From: a virus
Taxonomy: Duplodnaviria; Heunggongvirae; Uroviricota; Caudoviricetes
Direction: 5' to 3' (one strand)
DNA length: 15,282 nucleotides
Virus record (IMG/VR): IMGVR_UViG_2740892031_000004
The notes beneath the pieces were generated by a model. That model did not search any database and was not told where the DNA came from. It saw only the letters and a list, made by a program, of their open reading frames with translations. This document shows positions 3,376 through 15,282 of this stretch, piece by piece. The translations under genes and the position numbers were made by a program. Numbering within the stretch: position 1 is the first letter of the stretch; every line of letters starts with the position of its first letter.

Positions 3376-3451
3376 ACCCCGTCTCCCGTTATCCGGAAGC
3401 TCACAACAATATAAAGACCACCGGCACACACCGATGGTCCCTTGCGCAGGC

Positions 3452-3697
3452 TTACATCATCATGTCGCTGTCAGGTGTGGGTTCACCGCCATCTGAAGCA
3501 CTCCCGTCACCCGCGATACCTTCCGGCTCCGGAACCGCTGGTACGCCCAGCAGCTCATCCAGAATGGCATCCACTTCTGCATCAAGACGCGCCTCAAGGT
3601 TCTGGCGGAGTTTCTGTTTCAGTGCGCTCAGGACTTCTTCAGAGCGCAGGACTTCCTTCACTGCCTCAGCAGTGACCAGGGATGTGATTTCTGACAT
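3452..3697 (-). CDS. small acidic hypothetical protein (81 aa)
   Basis: ATG at 3695-3697; [51 protein letters not shown]... with an acidic, Pro/Gly-rich tail ending MMM. Resembles the small conserved ORFs found just upstream of S in Stx-type prophages (family not confirmed). Confidence 0.5.
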
Positions 3698-3734
3698 GGG
3701 ATTTTCTCGTTGAAAGGTGTTGTCAAGAAAGTGA

Positions 3735-3917
3735 CTACGGAATGAGCGGATCTTCGGGTTTGCTTCCGGCTGACTGACTGGCGCTGATTCTCTCAGCGGC
3801 CCTTTTATCAATCTGCCTGCGCCAGAAATCGCGCACTGCCCTGTACCCACCCGAAAGAAGATACATAACACAGACTGCCATACAGAAGTACAGCATTACC
3901 TGATGAATAAATGTCAT
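3735..3917 (-). CDS. small putative membrane protein (60 aa)
   Basis: ATG at 3915-3917 with weak SD; N-terminal hydrophobic helix (VMLYFCMAVCVMYLLSGG) followed by a basic tail. Confidence 0.35.
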   Translation of the reverse strand: MTFIHQVMLYFCMAVCVMYLLSGGYRAVRDFWRRQIDKRAAERISASQSAGSKPEDPLIP

Positions 3918-3935
3918 AATTTCTTACCGTTATGG

Positions 3936-3941
3936 TTGACA
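3936..3941 (+). promoter_or_regulatory. candidate -35 hexamer (TTGACA) for a short + strand transcript
   Basis: Exact TTGACA consensus at 3936-3941, but only weak -10 candidates 16-18 bp downstream (TTAGAA / TAGAAA). Confidence 0.2.
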
Positions 3942-4015
3942 ATGAGAACTGTTTTCATTTAGAAATGATTGATGTCGAAAGCATCTTTTCTTTACATTCT
4001 CCATTGGGATTACCT

Positions 4016-4052
4016 CCGCCAGCTTCCATTCCTGCCGCTGGCGGCTTTTTTT
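4016..4052 (+). terminator. intrinsic terminator on + strand, convergent with nanS-p 3' end
   Basis: 8-bp stem CCGCCAGC (4016-4023) / GCTGGCGG (4037-4044), then a T7 run (4046-4052). On the minus strand the run is A7 upstream of the hairpin, so this acts only for + strand transcription. Confidence 0.45.
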
Positions 4053-4053
4053 A

Positions 4054-6015
4054 TCATGCCGCGATGTCCGCGTTGTTCACTTCCACCTTCACACTGTCAA
4101 TCAGCAGCGTATATGTCGCCGCCTTTGATATGCCTGTCAGTTGCAGTTTGTCCGCCGCCCCTGATGCCGGAGATTTCACCAGTGTGAACGGCGTCCCCCG
4201 TTTCTCATCCAGTACCGGCGTCACCTGAATGCTGTTGTTTCCGGCAAACTCAAAAGCCAGTGTGTGCCATCCGTTATCAAAGACCCCGAACGTATCCAGC
4301 TTCGCATTCGGCTTCTTGTGGTGCATCGCGTTCAGGTTCGTCGCATCCGTCTGCAGGAAGAAGGACATCAGCATGTCGTTGCCTTCCTCTGCCAGCGTCA
4401 CTCCCTCCGGCAGGGACGACAACTGCCAGTAAATGCCCAGGGCAAACTGATTCGGCACCAGTGAACCCGGCAACTTAAACCGTACGCTCACACGTCCCCC
4501 CTTCTTCAGTAACTCCACTCCCTGTCCGGCTGCATCATGCTCCAGAAACCAGATGTGGTTTTCCGGTTTATTCAGTTGCAGGGCCTTACCTCCCGTAGCC
4601 CCCGCATCACTGACCACCGCTTCAGCAATGTTTTTGTTAACATTGTCTCCGCTCGCCGGTTTGTGATAATAGCGCCAGCCCTGTGATGCCAGGTCTTCGC
4701 CGGACGCCAGCAGACTCATCAGGGTTCGGTTACTGACCGGGGCTTCCGGCTCTCTCTCCGTACCTTCACCGGAAGGTCCGGTGGGCTTCACCGTATCAGG
4801 CTGTTTTCCGGTAATGAATTCAGCGTTTCTCCCGGCATGCACAAGAATCGCCGTTGCCAGACGGTCGGAAATAATCCCACGACGTGCCCATGATCCAAAA
4901 TGCGTTTTACGGTCGGCCGTCGTCCAGGTTTTGGCGTCCGTTCGACCACCGGCTCCGTAATACCCAATATCCGCAACATCCGGATCTTCTGACGGCTCGT
5001 TGGTACCCACATTTCGCCCGTTTTCATCCGTCATAAACGGCACAAAGAAGATTTTTTTTGCGGATTTCGTCTTGTATGCACCATACACCGCATCGTATTG
5101 CGAAGAATAAGTCTGCTTCCAGTAGTAGGTCGTGTCGCCACAAATCCAGGGAACCGATGACGGAGAGCCCCCGAGACACTGACCTCCGAATTCCGACAGG
5201 TCAGAACGATATTTTTCCACCATGGAATCAAACAGCCCCGGCTGAGTGGCGTATGCACCCTGTTTCAAATCAAACTCGCCCTGCATCCAGACCACTGCAA
5301 GCAGAATATTTTTAGGGTTGGCCTTCAGTGCGGCCTGAGTACGGGTAAGCAGGTCCTTGTACAGTGGCTTATCAACACCCCAGCGTGCCGAGGTCTCGCT
5401 TGCGCTGGTGGATTCGCTGAAGGTACCTTCATCGCCCGCCAAAAATGCAGAACCACCACGGCAGCACGGAACCAGAAGAATACCGGCATTCGCCGGAATA
5501 AACGGCAACAATTTCTTCGCGATATGTAATCCCTGCCCCACGCATCCATACTGAGCTGCGCTGGCTTTCGGGTGTGAAAACTTACTCAAATCCTGAACAT
5601 CATGCAGGCAGTGGTCCGCAGGAATAATGTCATTGTAGTTACAGGACGCACCACCCGGCGTGACAGTGCTGCGACGCGCCAGCTGTTTAATACGCGGGTC
5701 CGGACGGTCATATGTCTCCGGCAGCGGAAGCCCTTCACCATACGCCATACCGTTTGACCGCCCGGCTAGGGCAACAACAAAGTAATACTCCGGGTTGCTG
5801 GTGGTGCTGATAACTGCGCCTTCTCCATCCGACGGCTTCACCACCACAGGTGTGGTGACATCACCTTCCGCCGCAATGGCCTGCATCAGGGTATAAGGCG
5901 TGATGGCCACCGGACTGCCAAATGGCTGCCACCCCTCCTTCAGTTTTTGTGTCAGTCGTTTCGCAAGGTCTGACGGCGATGCCGCCCTGACAACATCATA
6001 GTGTTTAAATGCCAT
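4054..6015 (-). CDS. nanS-p: prophage NanS-p-type sialate O-acetylesterase (DUF1737 N-terminus plus SASA esterase region)
   Basis: 653 aa from ATG at 6013-6015 (ORF track gives 658 aa from 6030, which lacks an SD). N-terminus MAFKHYDVV...EGWQPFGSPV matches the DUF1737 pattern seen in the large yjhS/nanS-like proteins downstream of stx in EHEC prophages. Same position relative to Q and S as in Stx phages. Confidence 0.75.
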   Translation of the reverse strand: MAFKHYDVVRAASPSDLAKRLTQKLKEGWQPFGSPVAITPYTLMQAIAAEGDVTTPVVVKPSDGEGAVISTTSNPEYYFVVALAGRSNGMAYGEGLPLPETYDRPDPRIKQLARRSTVTPGGASCNYNDIIPADHCLHDVQDLSKFSHPKASAAQYGCVGQGLHIAKKLLPFIPANAGILLVPCCRGGSAFLAGDEGTFSESTSASETSARWGVDKPLYKDLLTRTQAALKANPKNILLAVVWMQGEFDLKQGAYATQPGLFDSMVEKYRSDLSEFGGQCLGGSPSSVPWICGDTTYYWKQTYSSQYDAVYGAYKTKSAKKIFFVPFMTDENGRNVGTNEPSEDPDVADIGYYGAGGRTDAKTWTTADRKTHFGSWARRGIISDRLATAILVHAGRNAEFITGKQPDTVKPTGPSGEGTEREPEAPVSNRTLMSLLASGEDLASQGWRYYHKPASGDNVNKNIAEAVVSDAGATGGKALQLNKPENHIWFLEHDAAGQGVELLKKGGRVSVRFKLPGSLVPNQFALGIYWQLSSLPEGVTLAEEGNDMLMSFFLQTDATNLNAMHHKKPNAKLDTFGVFDNGWHTLAFEFAGNNSIQVTPVLDEKRGTPFTLVKSPASGAADKLQLTGISKAATYTLLIDSVKVEVNNADIAA

Positions 6016-6208
6016 GGTTCTTTCCACCATCTGAAAAATAATTCTTTAAAATACCTGACATGTAATACAGAAAAAACACAAAACCATACCTTAAATAAAA
6101 ACCTCATCATCAAGCAGATATGCATGGATAAACTACAAGACGAGATATAAACCACCCTGCATTTAAATAAACAATAAACAACATCAGAAAAATAATTCTG
6201 CTCTATGG

Positions 6209-6625: not shown

Positions 6626-6667
6626 TCTGACAAAATCAATATAAACAGCCCCTCCGGAGAGGGGCTG
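6626..6667 (-). terminator. candidate intrinsic terminator (minus strand)
   Basis: GC-rich 9-bp stem CAGCCCCTC / GAGGGGCTG (6646-6667) with 4-nt loop, followed on the minus strand by UUUAUAUUGAUUUUG. Confidence 0.4.
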
Positions 6668-6981
6668 GAGAGTGGCGCTATGTGCCATTGCATGATGCCG
6701 GGTGCCTCCCGGTGAGTTCAGTATCAGCACCTGAACCCGCACAGAAAGGATAAGGGTCGGTGACAAAACACCAGTTGCTGATTGCCCCTCCGCACAGGGG
6801 GATTCACCATGCCAGTTTCTTTTAACAAACTCCCCGCAAACCAGACAACAGTCAACCGCCTGAATTGTGAGGTATTTAAAAATTTCTCCAGATAACTGAT
6901 ACCCGGCTAACAGTCTGGCGTTTTCTTTTTCAGCAACGGGAAAGCAACAACCACCACACCCACCAGCCGCCCATTTACCAC

Positions 6982-9848: not shown

Positions 9849-10004
9849 TTACTCCTCAGGTTCGTAAGCTGTGAAGACAGTGACCTCCGTCTGGCCGGTT
9901 CGGATTCGTACCTCGCAGAGGTCTTTCCTCGTTACCAGTGCCGTCATTATGACGGTTAAACAGATGACGATCAGGGCGATTAACATCGCCTTTTGCTGCT
10001 TCAT
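9849..10004 (-). CDS. hokD: Hok/Gef-family type I toxin (51 aa)
   Basis: Minus-strand translation MKQQKAMLIALIVICLTVIMTALVTRKDLCEVRIRTGQTEVTVFTAYEPEE matches the Hok family and is nearly identical to my recollection of HokD/RelF. AAGGAG SD 9 nt upstream of the ATG at 10002-10004. Below the 60-aa cutoff, so absent from the ORF track. Confidence 0.85.
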   Translation of the reverse strand: MKQQKAMLIALIVICLTVIMTALVTRKDLCEVRIRTGQTEVTVFTAYEPEE

Positions 10005-10260
10005 AGCCTGCTTCTCCTTGACCTTTCGGTCCGTAAGAGGCTAATCTCTATGTGTCGCATAGATATGGCCTCAGATTAATGTTAAGCGTCTTGCAGGACC
10101 GCGTAATGTTAACTGGGGCTTTTCTCTATCTGCCTTTTGGTGTTCATGCCTGAGACAGATAGCCTCAAGCACCCGCAGTCATTCTACTTAACTAAGATTT
10201 CCCCGCAAACCGTTTTTGTCCGGCACAGTAAATATCCAACTAAACCAATGGCGTTCGCTG
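10005..10260 (-). promoter_or_regulatory. hok mRNA leader region (expected site of mok overlap and sok-type antisense control)
   Basis: Non-coding stretch upstream of hok. Hok loci normally carry a long structured leader with an antisense RNA; the individual elements were not resolved here. Confidence 0.3.
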
Positions 10261-11658: not shown

Positions 11659-11749
11659 TAGACTGGCCCCCTGAATCTCCAGACAACCAATATCACTTAT
11701 TTAAGTGATAGTCTTAATACTAGTTTTTAGACTAGTCATTGGAGAACAG

Positions 11750-12115
11750 ATGATTGATGTCTTAGGGCCGGAGAAACGCAGACGGCGTACCACACAGGAA
11801 AAGATCGCAATTGTTCAGCAGAGCTTTGAACCGGGGATGACGGTCTCCCTCGTTGCCCGGCAACATGGTGTAGCAGCCAGCCAGTTATTTCTCTGGCGTA
11901 AGCAATACCAGGAAGGAAGTCTTACTGCTGTCGCCGCCGGAGAACAGGTTGTTCCTGCCTCTGAACTTGCTGCCGCCATGAAGCAGATTAAAGAACTCCA
12001 GCGCCTGCTCGGCAAGAAAACGATGGAAAATGAACTCCTCAAAGAAGCCGTTGAATATGGACGGGCAAAAAAGTGGATAGCGCACGCGCCCTTATTGCCC
12101 GGGGATGGGGAGTAA
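11750..12115 (+). CDS. insC: IS2 OrfA (InsC)
   Basis: 121 aa, [40 protein letters not shown]... matches recalled InsC. ORF track starts at an upstream GTG (11705). Confidence 0.9.
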
Positions 12116-12978
12116 GCTTAGTCAGCCGTTGTCTCCGGGTGTCGCGTGCGCAGTTGCACGTCATTCTCAGACGAACCGATGACTGGATGGATGGCCGCCG
12201 CAGTCGTCACACTGATGATACGGATGTGCTTCTCCGTATACACCATGTTATCGGAGAGCTGCCCACGTATGGTTATCGTCGGGTATGGGCGCTGCTTCGC
12301 AGACAGGCAGAACTTGATGGTATGCCTGCGATCAATGCCAAACGTGTTTACCGGATCATGCGCCAGAATGCGCTGTTGCTTGAGCGAAAACCTGCTGTAC
12401 CGCCATCGAAACGGGCACATACAGGCAGAGTGGCCGTGAAAGAAAGCAATCAGCGATGGTGCTCTGACGGGTTCGAGTTCTGCTGTGATAACGGAGAGAG
12501 ACTGCGTGTCACGTTCGCGCTGGACTGCTGTGATCGTGAGGCACTGCACTGGGCGGTCACTACCGGCGGCTTCAACAGTGAAACAGTACAGGACGTCATG
12601 CTGGGAGCGGTGGAACGCCGCTTCGGCAACGATCTTCCGTCGTCTCCAGTGGAGTGGCTGACGGATAATGGTTCATGCTACCGGGCTAATGAAACACGCC
12701 AGTTCGCCCGGATGTTGGGACTTGAACCGAAGAACACGGCGGTGCGGAGTCCGGAGAGTAACGGAATAGCAGAGAGCTTCGTGAAAACGATAAAGCGTGA
12801 CTACATCAGTATCATGCCCAAACCAGACGGGTTAACGGCAGCAAAGAACCTTGCAGAGGCGTTCGAGCATTATAACGAATGGCATCCGCATAGTGCGCTG
12901 GGTTATCGCTCGCCACGGGAATATCTGCGGCAGCGGGCTTGTAATGGGTTAAGTGATAACAGATGTCTGGAAATATAG
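12073..12978 (+). CDS. insD: IS2 OrfB transposase (InsD), DDE-type
   Basis: 301 aa, [34 protein letters not shown]... matches recalled InsD; overlaps insC as expected for the frameshift-fused IS3-family transposase. Confidence 0.9.
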
Positions 12979-12989
12979 GGGCAAATCCA

Positions 12990-12994
12990 GAGGG
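12990..12994. repeat. IS2 target-site duplication, right copy (GAGGG)
   Basis: Identical to 11654-11658. Confidence 0.8.
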
Positions 12995-13056
12995 TCATCC
13001 TCTTTTACCGGAAATAAAACGATATTGCTTAACTCATCCTCTGGTTTTATTTCCAT
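12990..13056 (-). pseudogene. N-terminal part (22 codons) of the IS2-split gene
   Basis: ATG at 13054-13056 with GGAGAGGAG upstream; MEIKPEDELSNIVLFPVKEDDP then the IS2 end. Overlaps the last 23 nt of the Ea22-like gene. Confidence 0.6.
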
Positions 13057-13657
13057 GCTCCTCTCCTTTGATGCGAATGCCAGCGACGCGTAATGCGTGT
13101 TCCAGGTCAATCAGGTAAAGCCAACTGCCATTTTCTTTAGGTATCATGACATGTCGCTCATCTGCATTTATCGGGTGTCCATATCGAAGGTCGTAGCGAG
13201 TCGGTAATTGAACTTCCCGCGCTTCCAGTTCAGCAATACGCTTGCACCCATCAGAGATAACTCCCTCGTAATACTCGCGCTGCTCGTTGAGTTTTGATTT
13301 TGCTGCTTCAAGCTCAACGAGCAGCTTCCCAACCGTAAGCGCAATATCCTCGTTCTCCTGGTCGCGGCGTTTGATGTATTGCTGGTTTCTTTCCTGTTCA
13401 TCCAGCAGTGCCAGCACGGTAGCCGGGTTAGCCTCTGCTATGAACTCAGCGTTTGCATAAGCCTGAGCATCTGTTTCAATCAGGCAGTTAACATGACGTT
13501 CCGCAATCACGCCACCGGGTTCTCCTTTCCATTTTTGACAAACAAAAACTCCTGTTAAATTGCCGTGTTGGTTAACAGATGTATGCCCTACGATGTAGCT
13601 TCCTTTAGTTGCTTTCTCTGCCTTTTCACGCAGTACCTGATAGTTAATCTCGCTCAT
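13034..13657 (-). CDS. Ea22-like family phage protein (207 aa)
   Basis: Start taken as the ATG at 13655-13657 (MSEINYQ...); ORF track extends to a TTG at 13681. Contains the NAEFIAEANPATVLALLDEQE segment I associate with Ea22-like proteins. Confidence 0.7.
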   Translation of the reverse strand: MSEINYQVLREKAEKATKGSYIVGHTSVNQHGNLTGVFVCQKWKGEPGGVIAERHVNCLIETDAQAYANAEFIAEANPATVLALLDEQERNQQYIKRRDQENEDIALTVGKLLVELEAAKSKLNEQREYYEGVISDGCKRIAELEAREVQLPTRYDLRYGHPINADERHVMIPKENGSWLYLIDLEHALRVAGIRIKGEEHGNKTRG

Positions 13658-13832
13658 TTTTCTCTTCATTCCGGTATACAAGAATTACAACGTCACCTCT
13701 GCTAATTACGCGAGCTGGATCCCCTGGTTCCATGCTGTCAATCCCGAAGGCTTCGAAAAATGCATCCATTGCCTTCTGGCGTTGCTCCTGCTTACGGCGT
13801 TTATTCCATTTTTGAACAACAGTGACAGCCAT
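13644..13832 (-). CDS. small basic hypothetical protein (62 aa)
   Basis: ATG at 13830-13832; charged, helical-looking sequence (KWNKRRKQEQRQKAMDAFFEAFGID). Overlaps the Ea22-like start by 14 nt. Competes with an overlapping 72-aa ORF in another frame. Confidence 0.4.
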   Translation of the reverse strand: MAVTVVQKWNKRRKQEQRQKAMDAFFEAFGIDSMEPGDPARVISRGDVVILVYRNEEKNERD

Positions 13833-13913
13833 CGTCCGCTGCAGAACATGATGTAGAAATAACCAAGAAGTGCCAAGCCGGTGTTCAGGGCCATATCAAT
13901 CGTTATCGCCGGG

Positions 13914-14216
13914 TCAATATTCACTGCCCACCTCCTGAAAAATCACCGCATGGCCCAGTTTCTCCGCCAGTGCCAGCTCAGCCCTTGCACCTGCCGACTG
14001 CTGCCAGCCTTTCAGCATGTAAACCGCATCCACGCAACGGAGCATTGCCATGCAAATATCCATGTAGTGTGGTTGAGTCAGCCCGTCCGGAAGTACTGCC
14101 GGGTTTAAAACGGTATGCCCTTCCCGTTTCAGCGCATCTTCCGCCCTGTGAAACGCCTCGCGGTTGAAATTTTCATATCCCGTCATCGGACCGGCGATAT
14201 AAATCCTCACCCTCAC
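13914..14216 (-). CDS. DUF4406-like protein (nucleoside 2-deoxyribosyltransferase-like fold), 100 aa
   Basis: GTG start at 14214-14216 overlaps the upstream stop (GTGA), with a strong AGGAGGG SD. N-terminal RIYIAGPMTG motif and overall pattern match my recollection of DUF4406. Family call not verified. Confidence 0.6.
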   Translation of the reverse strand: MRVRIYIAGPMTGYENFNREAFHRAEDALKREGHTVLNPAVLPDGLTQPHYMDICMAMLRCVDAVYMLKGWQQSAGARAELALAEKLGHAVIFQEVGSEY

Positions 14217-14467
14217 TCCTGAACCCTCCTGTCGAAATAAACGTAGTTATTCACTGCGCCCAACTTCATCCCAAACTTTTCGGCAATTTCCCGTCGGGGT
14301 ACGCCACGCTGATGCAGTTGCCGCGCCAGCTCAATATCACGCTGTGAATATTTTGCCGACGGGTGAAAATCACCCCGTAAAATCATGCTGATACCCAGTT
14401 CCCGCGCTTTCGTCCTGACGGCTGACTCACTACGACCAATCAGATAACCGATGCTTTCGACTCTCAT
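14213..14467 (-). CDS. small helix-turn-helix protein (84 aa)
   Basis: ATG at 14465-14467. Two HTH-like segments (SIGYLIGRSESAVRTKARELGI and VPRREIAEKFGMKLGAVNNYV). The ORF-track N-terminal extension overlaps the upstream gene. Confidence 0.55.
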   Translation of the reverse strand: MRVESIGYLIGRSESAVRTKARELGISMILRGDFHPSAKYSQRDIELARQLHQRGVPRREIAEKFGMKLGAVNNYVYFDRRVQE

Positions 14468-14526
14468 CGTTCCCGCACACTGCCGGAGTATCAGGATTTC
14501 AGCCCAGCGCCACTTCTTCCAGCCAC

Positions 14527-15243
14527 TCACCGCTGCTGCTCTCTGGTGGCGGTAATATCCCGGAGAATATCCCTGTGTTTGTTCAGTTCCCGCAGCGCAG
14601 CACAGACTCGCTCCCACTTCTGGACATCACTTTTCGCCCGGCGCAGCTCGCGGTTAGCCACATGCAGCGATGGTAGAATCAGGTCATCTGCTTTCATTTC
14701 GGTGATCGATGGCTGTAACCTCACAATGTCTTCCACGATTTCTGTTTTCATTTCTTCCTGTGCCATCATTTCCTGTACTGGTAACGCAACACCTGCTGGC
14801 TGAGGAAAGGCTTTACCATCGGTTTCCGCTACGGATGCAGCTTCCGGCTCTGCCGGTAAATCAGCGCCCGGTATGCAGTAACGAAATTTACCGCCCTGAT
14901 TCACGCGAATCAGACGCCCTTTGCTGATTGCCATGGCCAGCGATGAATTCGCCCGGCGCGAGGTAATCCCGAACATCAGTGCCAGCTCATCCGCCGTTTG
15001 TGGGCCATGTTGTTCAATCGCCTCAGTCAGCATTTGCGCTGTCACTTTCGGTACCGGTGACACCGGTTCACTTTCACCAGCCTGAATCAGCCACCACATC
15101 GAACCCTTGTTATCCGCTTCACCGCGGCGCTTCAGTTTCCACAGTTCGTTGACCGCATCTTCACGGCTGATTCCAAGGCGGGCCGCCACTACCTGTGAAG
15201 AGGCTCTTTTCAGTGCTTTCAGTGCGTCAGATACGGTTTCCAT
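14527..15243 (-). CDS. hypothetical phage protein (238 aa) with two winged-helix-like segments
   Basis: ATG at 15241-15243 with GGAGG SD. Segments [21 protein letters not shown] and [26 protein letters not shown] look like DNA-binding wHTH motifs; family not recognised. Confidence 0.65.
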
Positions 15244-15282
15244 TAAAATTTCCTCCGGACAAAATTACTTCACAACCCTCAT

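Follow-up and report, generated by a model that had tools for sequence, protein, structure and literature searches.

A DUF4406 protein of a lambdoid prophage has a minimal N-(deoxy)ribosyltransferase fold and is a candidate nucleoside-monophosphate N-glycosidase

We analysed a 15,282-nucleotide stretch of tailed-phage DNA (IMG/VR record IMGVR_UViG_2740892031_000004; hereafter the window) and found that its DUF4406 gene is an intact, ordinary copy of a very common, already annotated phage family, and that the encoded protein is a minimal member (four strands, three helices) of the N-(deoxy)ribosyltransferase / DrHyd fold. The further proposal that DUF4406 is a functional (deoxy)nucleoside-monophosphate ((d)NMP) N-glycosidase, similar to DNPH1 and MilB and carried in an exchangeable early-operon cassette, is one that we hold with moderate confidence, its substrate class and chemistry being deduced. 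Judged from sequence comparison, the family hypothesis would narrow from 'nucleoside deoxyribosyltransferase' to 'nucleoside-monophosphate N-glycosidase', on four grounds: Ser is invariant at a position that is Asp in the transferases, the Glu nucleophile is almost always kept, the usual general acid is replaced, and fusions with MazG/MazZ pyrophosphohydrolases recur. The window itself contributes nothing new; the family is abundant, yet without a described function, and the literature searched yielded no functional study or enzyme assay of any DUF4406 (PF14359) protein, and no functional study for DUF1627 or a phage 'nucleoside deoxyribosyltransferase'.

The DUF4406 gene lies in the early-right operon of a lambdoid prophage

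Three minus-strand genes follow one another in the order DUF1627, helix-turn-helix (HTH) and DUF4406, joined by GTGA stop/start overlaps. The TGA of the DUF1627/YdaW-like gene (14527-15243, minus strand, 238 aa; Pfam PF07789, E=5.6e-82) at 14529-14527 forms such an overlap with the GTG at 14530, which starts a tandem HTH gene of PHROG 323 type (14213-14530, minus strand, 105 aa). The HTH gene is overlapped at both ends, its own TGA (14215-14213) sharing a GTGA with the GTG start (14216-14214) of the DUF4406 gene (13914-14216, minus strand, 100 aa, MRVRIYIAGPMTGYENF...; Pfam E=2e-36). A Shine-Dalgarno sequence, AGGAGGG, was read from the sequence at 14230-14224 (minus strand), 7 nt before the DUF4406 GTG and within the 3′ end of the HTH gene. 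The initial annotation had described this GTGA overlap and strong Shine-Dalgarno sequence, both of which we read directly, and had a 100-aa protein coupled to a small HTH protein and following a 238-aa protein, which agrees with the order found here.

On the 3′ side, the start of a DUF4752 pseudogene (13644-13924, minus strand) overlaps the DUF4406 stop by 11 nt; a frameshift splits it into ORFs at 13706-13924 and 13644-13832, and positions 1-45 and 30-84 of the PF15944 profile match the separate ORFs. The next gene in the same operon is Ead/Ea22-like (13034-13681, minus strand; Pfam PF13935, E=1.7e-39). In E. coli Eco889, the RefSeq annotation treats the DUF4752 counterpart as a pseudogene with one end incomplete and marks the Ead/Ea22-like counterpart as partial. 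Four-nucleotide overlaps are frequent throughout the operon. A promoter and terminator scan of 12990-15282 gave no signal above chance level, and Rfam had no match in the region.

The gene order is that of a lambdoid E. coli prophage: cro, ydaT, O-like, DnaC-like, DUF1627, HTH, DUF4406, DUF4752 and ead, followed further on by hok, DUF968, rusA and Q. Compared with Eco889 (RefSeq) and Escherichia phage Rac-SA53, the DUF4406 gene lies in the accessory part of the early-right operon that is equivalent to ren/nin; its setting between the replication genes and Q bears out the earlier assignment to a phage early region. Transcription would presumably take place within the early-right operon, after induction. 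An identical DUF4406 gene is already annotated in Eco889, and the stretch 13600-15282 is covered to at least 80% in 391 of 5426 complete genomes. Rac-SA53 rac19, which is 89% identical to the window protein, lies at the same position (ydaW, X, DUF4406, ead), and only the upstream cassette differs, with the HTH gene here and DUF977/LygF there. These relatives, RefSeq WP_001545907.1 and Klebsiella phage phiKO2 gp58, all of DUF4406 (PF14359) / PHROG 355, match over the full length and have the same conserved residues. DUF4406 is under purifying selection (median dN/dS 0.10), and the family comprises >12,000 clusters at 50% identity and occurs in 591 of 50,697 phage records.

DUF4406 is a minimal member of the DrHyd fold

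The window protein matched the DUF4406 (PF14359) HMM with 124.5 bits against a gathering cut-off of 22 bits, residues 4-93 covering profile positions 2-91 of 91, and matched PHROG 355 with E=5e-48. The residues conserved in the family (G9, P10, G13, N18, F22, N38, P39, P43, Y51, W71, S74, G76 and E80) are all present. The protein has the three-layer alpha/beta Rossmannoid (flavodoxin-like) fold of nucleoside 2′-deoxyribosyltransferases (NDTs). The N-(deoxy)ribosyltransferase / DrHyd fold includes the NDTs, Rcl/DNPH1 and MilB/BlsM, and TIR domains are more remote members; the nearest structural relatives of DUF4406 are MilB, NDT and DUF1937, not TIR. The best PDB profile match was the NDT of T. 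brucei (E=2.6e-4), and a single-sequence PDB search returned 1t1j alone (E=1.4). This entry is a DUF1937 protein (PF09152) of about 20% identity, itself uncharacterised, and so gives no functional information. The initial annotation had proposed the DUF4406 family and a deoxyribosyltransferase-like fold, and the HMM and structure searches that it called for agree. NCBIfam and PADLOC scans of all three proteins returned nothing useful. No second Pfam or PHROG domain was found in the ten longest DUF4406 representatives, whose extra length is uninformative or a product of gene calling.

The predicted active site resembles that of (d)NMP N-glycosidases

All conservation counts refer to 136 DUF4406 representatives (50%-identity clusters). 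Across these, S74 is invariant (136/136), G76 and E80 are each kept in 134/136, and position 6 is Tyr in 113 and Phe in 19; the catalytic residue on whose conservation the earlier proposal depended is therefore present in nearly every representative. The predicted active site comprises Y6, S74, G76 and E80; C55 is located where the canonical general-acid Asp would be, or close to it. E80 aligns with the catalytic Glu nucleophile, which in the superfamily follows strand 3 within a [D/S]-x-G-x-x-x-E segment. In profile-to-PDB alignments, S74-x-G-x-x-x-E80 corresponds to D-C-G-T-A-F-E in the trypanosomatid NDTs (T. brucei, L. mexicana) and to S-P-G-T-H-[IV]-E in CMP N-glycosidase and BlsM. DUF4406 shares with the NDTs (PF05014; L. 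leichmannii, T. brucei, L. mexicana) the fold, the Glu nucleophile and a strand-loop of YIAGP type at the N-terminus, and differs from them in its shorter chain and in the invariant Ser that replaces Asp six residues before the Glu. This Ser it has in common with the 5′-phosphate-dependent hydrolases DNPH1 (Rcl, a 2′-deoxynucleoside 5′-phosphate N-hydrolase), MilB and BlsM (CMP / hydroxymethyl-CMP N-glycosidases).

For human DNPH1 we used a single sequence, checked solely by comparison with the residue numbers given in PMC10603095; hhalign to this one sequence, at low probability, paired Y6 with Y24, S74 with S98 and E80 with E104. In DNPH1, S98 coordinates the phosphate and E104 is the nucleophile, Y24, as opposed to F17 of MilB, sets the preference for deoxyribose over ribose, and MilB keeps the counterpart of S98 as S97 (PMC10603095). 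A literature search on Rcl Ser87/Asp92 found nothing.

DUF4406 also departs from these enzymes, to which its similarity is detectable by profiles only. The general-acid Asp of the Tyr-Asp-Glu triad, present in DNPH1 (D80), MilB and BlsM, has no conserved acidic counterpart in DUF4406: position 55 is Cys in 89 representatives, Asp in 20 and another residue in 27, and is Cys55 in the window protein. DNPH1 D80 aligned to M56 and the BlsM Asp to C55, in alignments that differ by 1-4 residues. The chain is of ~100 aa, compared with about 160-175 aa for DNPH1/Rcl and MilB/BlsM, and stops at residue 100, directly after strand 4, without a C-terminal helical extension. In DNPH1 this extension reaches the active site of the partner subunit (S128′); MilB, too, is without the coordinating Ser of the extension (PMC10603095). 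DUF4406 thus lacks the second phosphate ligand that the DNPH1 extension supplies, as well as a helical element of the E55/H56 type, and has as features of its own a conserved LNPAxLPxGL loop, Y51, F22 and W71.

Links to (d)NTP pyrophosphohydrolases point to a nucleoside-monophosphate substrate

In other phages, the neighbourhood of DUF4406 recurrently contains MazG/MazZ pyrophosphohydrolases and Dam/MT-A70 DNA methyltransferases. DUF4406 is fused to dGTP_diPhyd_N in one locus (L088) and to PRA-PH/MazG in gp158 of mycobacteriophage Redno2, where a dGTP_diPhyd_N gene also adjoins; another locus (L096) has a dGTP_diPhyd_N gene downstream, and in one cluster (L089) an NTP pyrophosphohydrolase gene of PHROG 2245 overlaps the DUF4406 start. 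PHROG 12019, a 'MazG-like pyrophosphatase', includes the DUF4406 domain, and the BFVD fold matches of DUF4406 include the name 'dATP/dGTP diphosphohydrolase N-terminal domain'. The repeated fusion and adjacency to MazG/MazZ-type enzymes favour a (d)NMP N-glycosidase and, with the Ser in place of Asp, suggest 5′-phosphorylated nucleotides as the substrate rather than nucleosides or DNA. In the window prophage, no MazG/MazZ, dNMP kinase or methylase gene stands beside DUF4406, so that this substrate assignment is borrowed from other clades.

On this proposal, the DUF4406 protein would bind a (deoxy)nucleoside 5′-monophosphate, the 5′-phosphate being held by the GPMTG loop after strand 1 and by the invariant Ser74, and Tyr6 would suggest a 2′-deoxy substrate. 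Glu80 would attack C1′ and expel the base, forming a covalent (deoxy)ribosyl-5-phosphate-enzyme intermediate that water would resolve, and the products would be the free base and (deoxy)ribose 5-phosphate. Such an enzyme may edit or sanitise the nucleotide pool in lytic growth.

The upstream neighbours are exchangeable cassettes

The mechanical call of the HTH ORF gave 134 aa (14213-14617); since the N-terminus is conserved in the homologues, residues W7 to G20 being invariant, we placed the start at the GTG at 14530, which gives 105 aa, the same as in RefSeq. The protein matched PHROG 323 (E=2.3e-25), and NCBI names it 'DNA-binding protein'. We describe it as a predicted tandem HTH protein from sub-threshold Pfam matches (Sigma70_r4_2, E=2e-4; HTH_7, E=4e-4), a profile match to the tandem-HTH structure 2lvs (E=4e-4) and an AF2 model (pLDDT 82.7) with two three-helix bundles, residues 9-45 and 63-98. 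Foldseek with this model gave no significant match (best E=0.011), as the two helical bundles are loosely connected; the best matches were bipartite HTH DNA-binding domains. In the 238-aa protein, the DUF1627 domain occupies residues 76-230 (PHROG 630, E=2.6e-115), and the Rac-SA53 counterpart of the gene is annotated ydaW. The initial annotation was right about the size of this protein; the two winged-HTH-like segments that it reported at the N-terminus may be present, as suggested by sub-threshold matches (DUF5817_CT, AbiEi_4, FeoC, HTH_11) and sequence pattern. The C-terminus varies with the downstream cassette.

A functional pairing of DUF4406 with the HTH protein, in which a DNA-bound N-glycosidase would act on or exchange bases in DNA or the HTH protein would regulate or target the enzyme, is highly improbable. 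The stop/start overlap and strong Shine-Dalgarno sequence speak for such a pair, and in 66 of the 80 close loci with the HTH gene DUF4406 lies immediately 3′ of it; a second clade (L156) also has both families side by side, in reversed order, and PHROG 2391, a 'DNA binding protein' family, is matched by the Ren-like DUF977 protein that can precede DUF4406 instead. However, of 82 close DUF4406 loci, 50 have DUF977 in the upstream slot and 31 have the HTH gene, the 4-nt overlap being identical in every case, and in the other 14 of the 80 HTH loci an unrelated 75-aa ORF follows the HTH gene, again with the same overlap; the 82 and 80 loci come from closely related prophages, and their counts are not independent. 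Across 18 distinct DUF4406 clades (80% identity), neighbours outside enterobacterial lambdoid phages are unrelated, and the adjacency of HTH and DUF4406 is not conserved across independent lineages. DUF4406 itself occurs in phages of Actinobacteria, Vibrio and Pseudomonas, whereas the named ones of the 150 HTH homologues, among the matches listed, are all from Enterobacterales, mostly E. coli and Salmonella. A single conserved upstream partner of DUF4406 was also considered and rejected, LygF/DUF977 not being homologous to the HTH protein. The functional coupling to two HTH genes implied by the initial annotation is thus not borne out: where DUF1627, HTH and DUF4406 meet, the GTGA overlaps are standard joints of exchangeable cassettes and no sign of a three-gene system.

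Alternative readings of the enzyme

The protein could instead be a genuine nucleoside 2′-deoxyribosyltransferase, as PHROG 355 and many GenBank phage records name it, and would then serve salvage or the rebalancing of pools by swapping bases among deoxynucleosides. The shared fold and Glu nucleophile and the NDT of T. brucei as best PDB profile match agree with this, and a PF05014 NDT of dZ phages has been shown to transfer deoxyribose from dA (bioRxiv 10.1101/2025.10.22.683976). We nevertheless regard a transferase as unlikely: the two aligned trypanosomatid NDTs have Asp at the position of the invariant Ser, PF05014 (Nuc_deoxyrib_tr) stayed below threshold (14.7 bits against a cut-off of 28.8 bits, E=0.036), the recurrent fusion partners make nucleoside monophosphates rather than nucleosides, and the names of the phage records are transferred annotations, some of them plainly wrong ('dCMP deaminase', 'MazG'). 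A non-catalytic nucleotide-binding sponge or sensor, in which the fold is kept without chemistry, would be in keeping with the small size (100 aa), with the missing general-acid Asp and with the inactive sensor versions found among TDS-clade domains (PMC9503650), and we give it very little credence. The invariant Ser74 and near-invariant Glu80, kept across very distant phages as an active site would be, argue for catalysis, and a pathway of two steps is suggested by the fusions with catalytic pyrophosphohydrolases. Of the roles that the initial annotation had offered as speculation, DNA modification and the degrading of host immune nucleotide signals would likewise be conjectural, and a pure sponge sequestering such signals is disfavoured by Ser74 and Glu80. 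Improbable, too, is a TIR/DrHyd-type counter-defence enzyme that would cleave NAD+ or NAD+-derived immune signals (cADPR isomers, ADPR derivatives) and so blunt Thoeris-like signalling. We found no match to a TIR or ARC family in Pfam and none in PADLOC, the nearest structures are those of MilB, NDT and DUF1937, and a survey of the viral NAD+-ADPr network reports ARC-type DrHyd domains only, with DUF4406 not listed (PMC9503650); the fusion partners are (d)NTP pyrophosphohydrolases, and no defence-related neighbours recur.

Possible place of DUF4406 in phage-host conflict

If DUF4406 is a (d)NMP N-glycosidase, it may also bear on immunity. dAMP reportedly feeds dITP synthesis in Kongming, and m6-dAMP derived from Dam is said to trigger PUA-Cal-HAD filaments. 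We consider it unlikely, and raise it tentatively, that DUF4406 proteins are dNMP N-glycosidases destroying dNMPs or modified dNMPs that serve host immunity as danger signals or precursors, a reading that would fit the recurrent MazG/MazZ and Dam/MT-A70 neighbourhood in other phages. Phage T5 Dmp, a 5′-deoxyribonucleotidase, counters Kongming by depleting dAMP (10.1101/2024.12.20.629578). Should DUF4406 destroy dNMPs, Dmp, itself a phage enzyme that removes them, could be its analogue in function; the chemistry would differ, Dmp being a Mg2+-dependent phosphatase that yields deoxynucleosides, whereas the chemistry proposed for DUF4406 is that of an N-glycosidase. Prophage-encoded defence, for example by hydrolysis of the hydroxymethyl-dCMP of T-even phages, was set aside as unlikely in view of the repressed early-right operon and of a family common in phages generally.

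If DUF4406 proteins do destroy dNMPs that serve host immunity, they would be to glycosidases what T5 Dmp is to phosphatases, and would make up a widespread class of anti-defence or pool-sanitising enzymes that has gone unrecognised. As dNMPs and modified dNMPs feed or trigger bacterial immunity, DUF4406 could reveal a common phage route of nucleotide-pool manipulation.

Gene layout and prophage setting

The three genes lie on the minus strand in the order DUF1627, HTH, DUF4406, and the observation in the initial annotation, including the GTGA overlap and strong Shine–Dalgarno sequence before DUF4406, proved right in every particular. The first gene encodes a 238-aa DUF1627 protein (14527–15243, −; Pfam E = 5.6e-82) and the last a 100-aa DUF4406 protein (MRVRIYIAGPMTG...; 13914–14216, −). 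For the small HTH gene between them, mechanical ORF listing gives 134 aa (14213–14617, −); its conserved start is the GTG at 14530, since conservation among homologues begins only there (W7, A10, E11, I14 and R16–G20 are invariant in 30 homologue sequences), and the resulting length of 105 aa is also that of the RefSeq annotation. Read directly on the minus strand, DUF1627 ends ...CGG TGA, and the HTH gene's GTG begins one base before that stop codon (GTGA at 14530–14527); the HTH/DUF4406 junction is ...CAG GAG TGA, with the DUF4406 GTG at 14216–14214 (GTGA at 14216–14213) and the Shine–Dalgarno sequence AGGAGGG at 14230–14224, 7 nt 5′ of that GTG.

The region 13600–15282 is approximately 99.9% identical to many E. 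coli chromosomes, and at least 80% of it is present in 391 of 5,426 complete genomes. In strain Eco889, annotation places the collinear genes in a lambdoid prophage adjoining potC, in the order LexA-like repressor/cro, ydaT, HTH (O-like), ATPase (DnaC-like), DUF1627, hypothetical (105 aa), DUF4406, DUF4752 (pseudogene), ead/Ea22 (partial) and, further on, hokD, DUF968, RusA, antiterminator, tRNAs, lysis and terminase. By this order the three genes fall between the replication genes and Q, in an accessory segment that corresponds to the lambda ren/nin region. At the same place the intact Rac phage Rac-SA53 carries ydaW (DUF1627), lygF, rac19 (DUF4406, 89% identical) and ead. A scan of 12990–15282 found no promoter-like or terminator-like signals above chance, a result that fits read-through transcription along the early-right operon.

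Elsewhere in the prophage, a 1.33-kb IS3-family element (11660–12989, +) with orfA (HTH_Tnp_1; 11705–12115, +) and orfB (rve; 12073–12978, +) is missing from the otherwise collinear Eco889 prophage and breaks the counterpart of the hypothetical gene WP_000403785.1; judged by InsD, it looks like IS2. The stretch 3423–5857 has no alignment to Eco889. The 658-aa product of the ORF located here (4054–6030, −) combines DUF1737, SASA (sialate O-acetylesterase) and DUF6645 domains and looks like a NanS-p-type prophage esterase; Eco889 has only a DUF1737 remnant in its place. Rfam matches comprise the sok antitoxin RNA (10002–10174, −; 106 bits), where the aligned Eco889 region has an annotated hokD, and the sRNA STnc100 (6637–6841, −; 133 bits).

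HTH–DUF4406 coupling is best read as cassette joining

The 105-aa protein matches PHROG 323 ('transcriptional regulator', E = 2e-25), with all Pfam HTH matches below threshold. It has 150 detectable homologues, which NCBI names 'DNA-binding protein'; the named ones among the matches listed are all enterobacterial (Enterobacterales), E. coli and Salmonella accounting for most. A profile search retrieved 2lvs, a tandem-HTH protein that binds CRISPR repeats (E = 4e-4), and the AF2 model (pLDDT 82.7) contains two three-helix bundles (9–45 and 63–98). The best Foldseek matches of the model were 2lvs, Tc3 transposase and AraC, all of them bipartite HTH DNA-binding domains and none significant (best E = 0.011). 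'Small HTH protein' is therefore a reasonable name.

The gene neighbourhoods speak against the HTH protein being a partner of DUF4406. Of the 82 closest DUF4406 loci, 50 have DUF977/LygF (PHROG 142, 'Ren-like exclusion protein') immediately 5′ and 31 have the HTH gene there; the two proteins are unrelated to each other, and the 4-nt stop/start overlap is identical throughout save at three HTH loci. The last approximately 15 residues of DUF1627 (14527–14580, −) vary with the downstream cassette, ending ...ITATREQQR where the HTH gene follows and ...SSRIVSEK where DUF977 does (loci L004, L020, L052, L002 and others; ...RDIVRQIVDSSSRIVSEK before DUF977/LygF), which indicates a recombination joint within the DUF1627 3′ end. 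Conversely, DUF4406 follows the HTH gene at 66 of its 80 closest loci, and at the remaining 14 an unrelated 75-aa ORF (MKILYQDYGPVGQ...; about 2815–3042 in L246, L249, L254 and L244) occupies the slot with the same 4-nt overlap. In one further clade (L156, 2239–3191) the window order is reversed: the DUF4406 protein, extended at its C-terminus by approximately 105 aa of no known family, comes first, and an HTH105-like gene (PHROG 323) overlaps its end by 4 nt. Beyond enterobacterial lambdoid phages, the neighbours of DUF4406 are exonucleases, HNH endonucleases, methylases, integrases and unknowns. Because the upstream slot is exchangeable, the HTH gene is found without DUF4406 and 4-nt overlaps are frequent throughout the operon (Eco889 annotation), the GTGA coupling is best read as ordinary cassette joining in a mosaic region, and we consider a loose functional link between the two proteins very unlikely.

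Fold and predicted active site of DUF4406

The nucleoside-deoxyribosyltransferase-type fold proposed for the 100-aa protein was confirmed, as was its family (Pfam DUF4406, 124.5 bits against a 22-bit cut-off). Pfam DUF1937 matches at the borderline, Nuc_deoxyrib_tr below threshold (14.7 against 28.8 bits) and PHROG 355 'nucleoside 2-deoxyribosyltransferase' with E = 5e-48. Among fold relatives, DUF1937 (1t1j) scored 12.5, the CMP/hydroxymethyl-CMP hydrolase MilB 11.5, several nucleoside 2′-deoxyribosyltransferases 10–11.3, TIR domains/SARM1/ThsB 9–10 and Rcl 9.2. DUF4406 is a minimal version of the fold, with approximately 100 residues and four strands against 135–175 residues in the characterised enzymes.

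Across 136 representatives of 50%-identity clusters, S74 and F22 are invariant, G76 and E80 are present in 134, Y51, G9 and P39 in 133, and position 6 is Tyr in 113 and Phe in 19. With a human DNPH1 sequence whose only check was the residue numbering of PMC10603095, hhalign paired Y6, S74, G76 and E80 with Y24, S98, G100 and E104. In DNPH1, the covalent deoxyribose-phosphate intermediate forms on the nucleophile E104, the 5′-phosphate is coordinated by S98 and by S128′ of the other subunit, MilB retains the equivalent Ser (S97), and DNPH1 Y24 versus MilB F17 tells deoxyribose from ribose substrates (PMC10603095). DUF4406 therefore retains the nucleophile; the earlier interpretation is partly supported, in that the fold and a conserved catalytic residue stand, and the HTH coupling is not a system. 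In a profile of the family, the segment aligned with S74-x-G-x-x-x-E80 reads D-C-G-T-A-F-E in the T. brucei and L. mexicana NDTs and S-P-G-T-H-[IV]-E in both BlsM and the CMP N-glycosidase 4jen, so that Ser74 at the discriminating position groups DUF4406 with the nucleotide (5′-phosphate) hydrolases rather than the nucleoside transferases.

DUF4406 differs from DNPH1 in having no conserved acidic equivalent of the general-acid Asp (D80): one alignment sets it against M56 and another against C55, a position with Cys in 89 and Asp in 20 of the 136 sequences. The substitute is predicted to be the unusual Cys, or Tyr51. DUF4406 likewise lacks the DNPH1 C-terminal extension and E55/H56 helical element, in whose place it has an LNPAxLPxGL loop that is highly conserved and specific to the family. 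On this analysis, a DNPH1/MilB-like nucleotide N-glycosidase is more likely than a nucleoside transferase.

Median dN/dS against 51 E. coli-type alleles is 0.10 at dS 0.46, and DUF4406 is thus under purifying selection. This matters because its downstream neighbours decay: directly 3′, the DUF4752 gene (13644–13924, −) is frameshifted into overlapping ORFs (13706–13924 and 13644–13832) that match Pfam profile positions 1–45 and 30–84, and its Eco889 counterpart is a RefSeq pseudogene incomplete at one end.

Phage partners and possible role of DUF4406

DUF4406 is a very large family: exhaustive phmmer search of 1.84 billion representatives gave 12,366 clusters (E ≤ 1e-3), and 591 of 50,697 phage records gave a tblastn match to the gene, with Arthrobacter, Vibrio, Gordonia, Mycobacterium, Pseudomonas, Aeromonas, Rhizobium and enterobacterial hosts. 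The longest representatives have no recognisable second domain. Fused or flanking (d)NTP pyrophosphohydrolase domains (dGTP_diPhyd_N, PRA-PH, PHROG 2245) occur in phages unrelated to that of the window. Locus L088 (2471–3502) encodes a 343-aa fusion of DUF4406 (10–101) with dGTP_diPhyd_N (224–317), a MazZ-type dATP/dGTP diphosphohydrolase domain; mycobacteriophage Redno2 gp158 joins DUF4406 to a PRA-PH/MazG-like domain and is followed by a separate dGTP_diPhyd_N gene; a dGTP_diPhyd_N gene lies right downstream of DUF4406 in L096 (2910–3272); and in the seven-locus L089 cluster (L089, 2100–2498) a PHROG 2245 NTP pyrophosphohydrolase gene overlaps the DUF4406 start by 4 nt. L085 (2480–3226 and 3190–3705) is among these loci, and two BFVD structural neighbours are titled 'dATP/dGTP diphosphohydrolase N-terminal domain-containing'. 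MazG/MazZ-type pyrophosphohydrolases convert (d)NTPs to (d)NMPs, and such partners would fit a two-step route from NTP to NMP to base plus sugar phosphate.

DNA methyltransferase genes adjoin DUF4406 in three other clades: an MT-A70 gene overlaps it in L087 (2782–3429), in L110 (3050–3592) a Dam gene follows it after 270 nt, and in Pseudomonas phage LESphi3 (L257; 1509–2504 and 3288–3998) a site-specific methyltransferase overlaps it, with an ASCH (PUA-like) protein downstream. Such neighbours may suggest a connection with modified nucleotides. Neither a pyrophosphohydrolase nor a methyltransferase gene stands beside DUF4406 in the window prophage.

The gene and its family are already known: an identical protein is RefSeq WP_001545907.1 'DUF4406 domain-containing protein', and Pfam and PHROGs list the family with a deoxyribosyltransferase-like label. 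We found no paper assigning it a function, and a survey of viral NAD+/ADPr domains, which reported ARC-type domains as the only DrHyd domains in viruses, does not cover it (PMC9503650). Arthrobacter phage proteins Kaylissa gp27 (L084, 2504–2869; 121 aa) and Coral gp53 (L086, 2438–2845; 135 aa) bear the deposited names 'MazG-like pyrophosphatase' and 'deoxycytidylate deaminase', respectively. Both have a DUF4406 domain (Kaylissa gp27 with a sub-threshold Nuc_deoxyrib_tr match as well) and neither has a MazG or deaminase domain, which makes it probable that the names are mis-annotations carried over by transfer.

The biological role of DUF4406 is speculative. Immune signalling has recently been shown to draw on dNMP pools: T5 Dmp counters Kongming by depleting dAMP (10.1101/2024.12.20.629578), and PUA-Cal-HAD filaments are triggered by m6-dAMP. 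A phage enzyme that destroys dNMPs could therefore act in counter-defence, a role that we consider unlikely for DUF4406. What the analysis adds for the family is a sharper, testable prediction, that of a nucleotide N-glycosidase over a nucleoside transferase.
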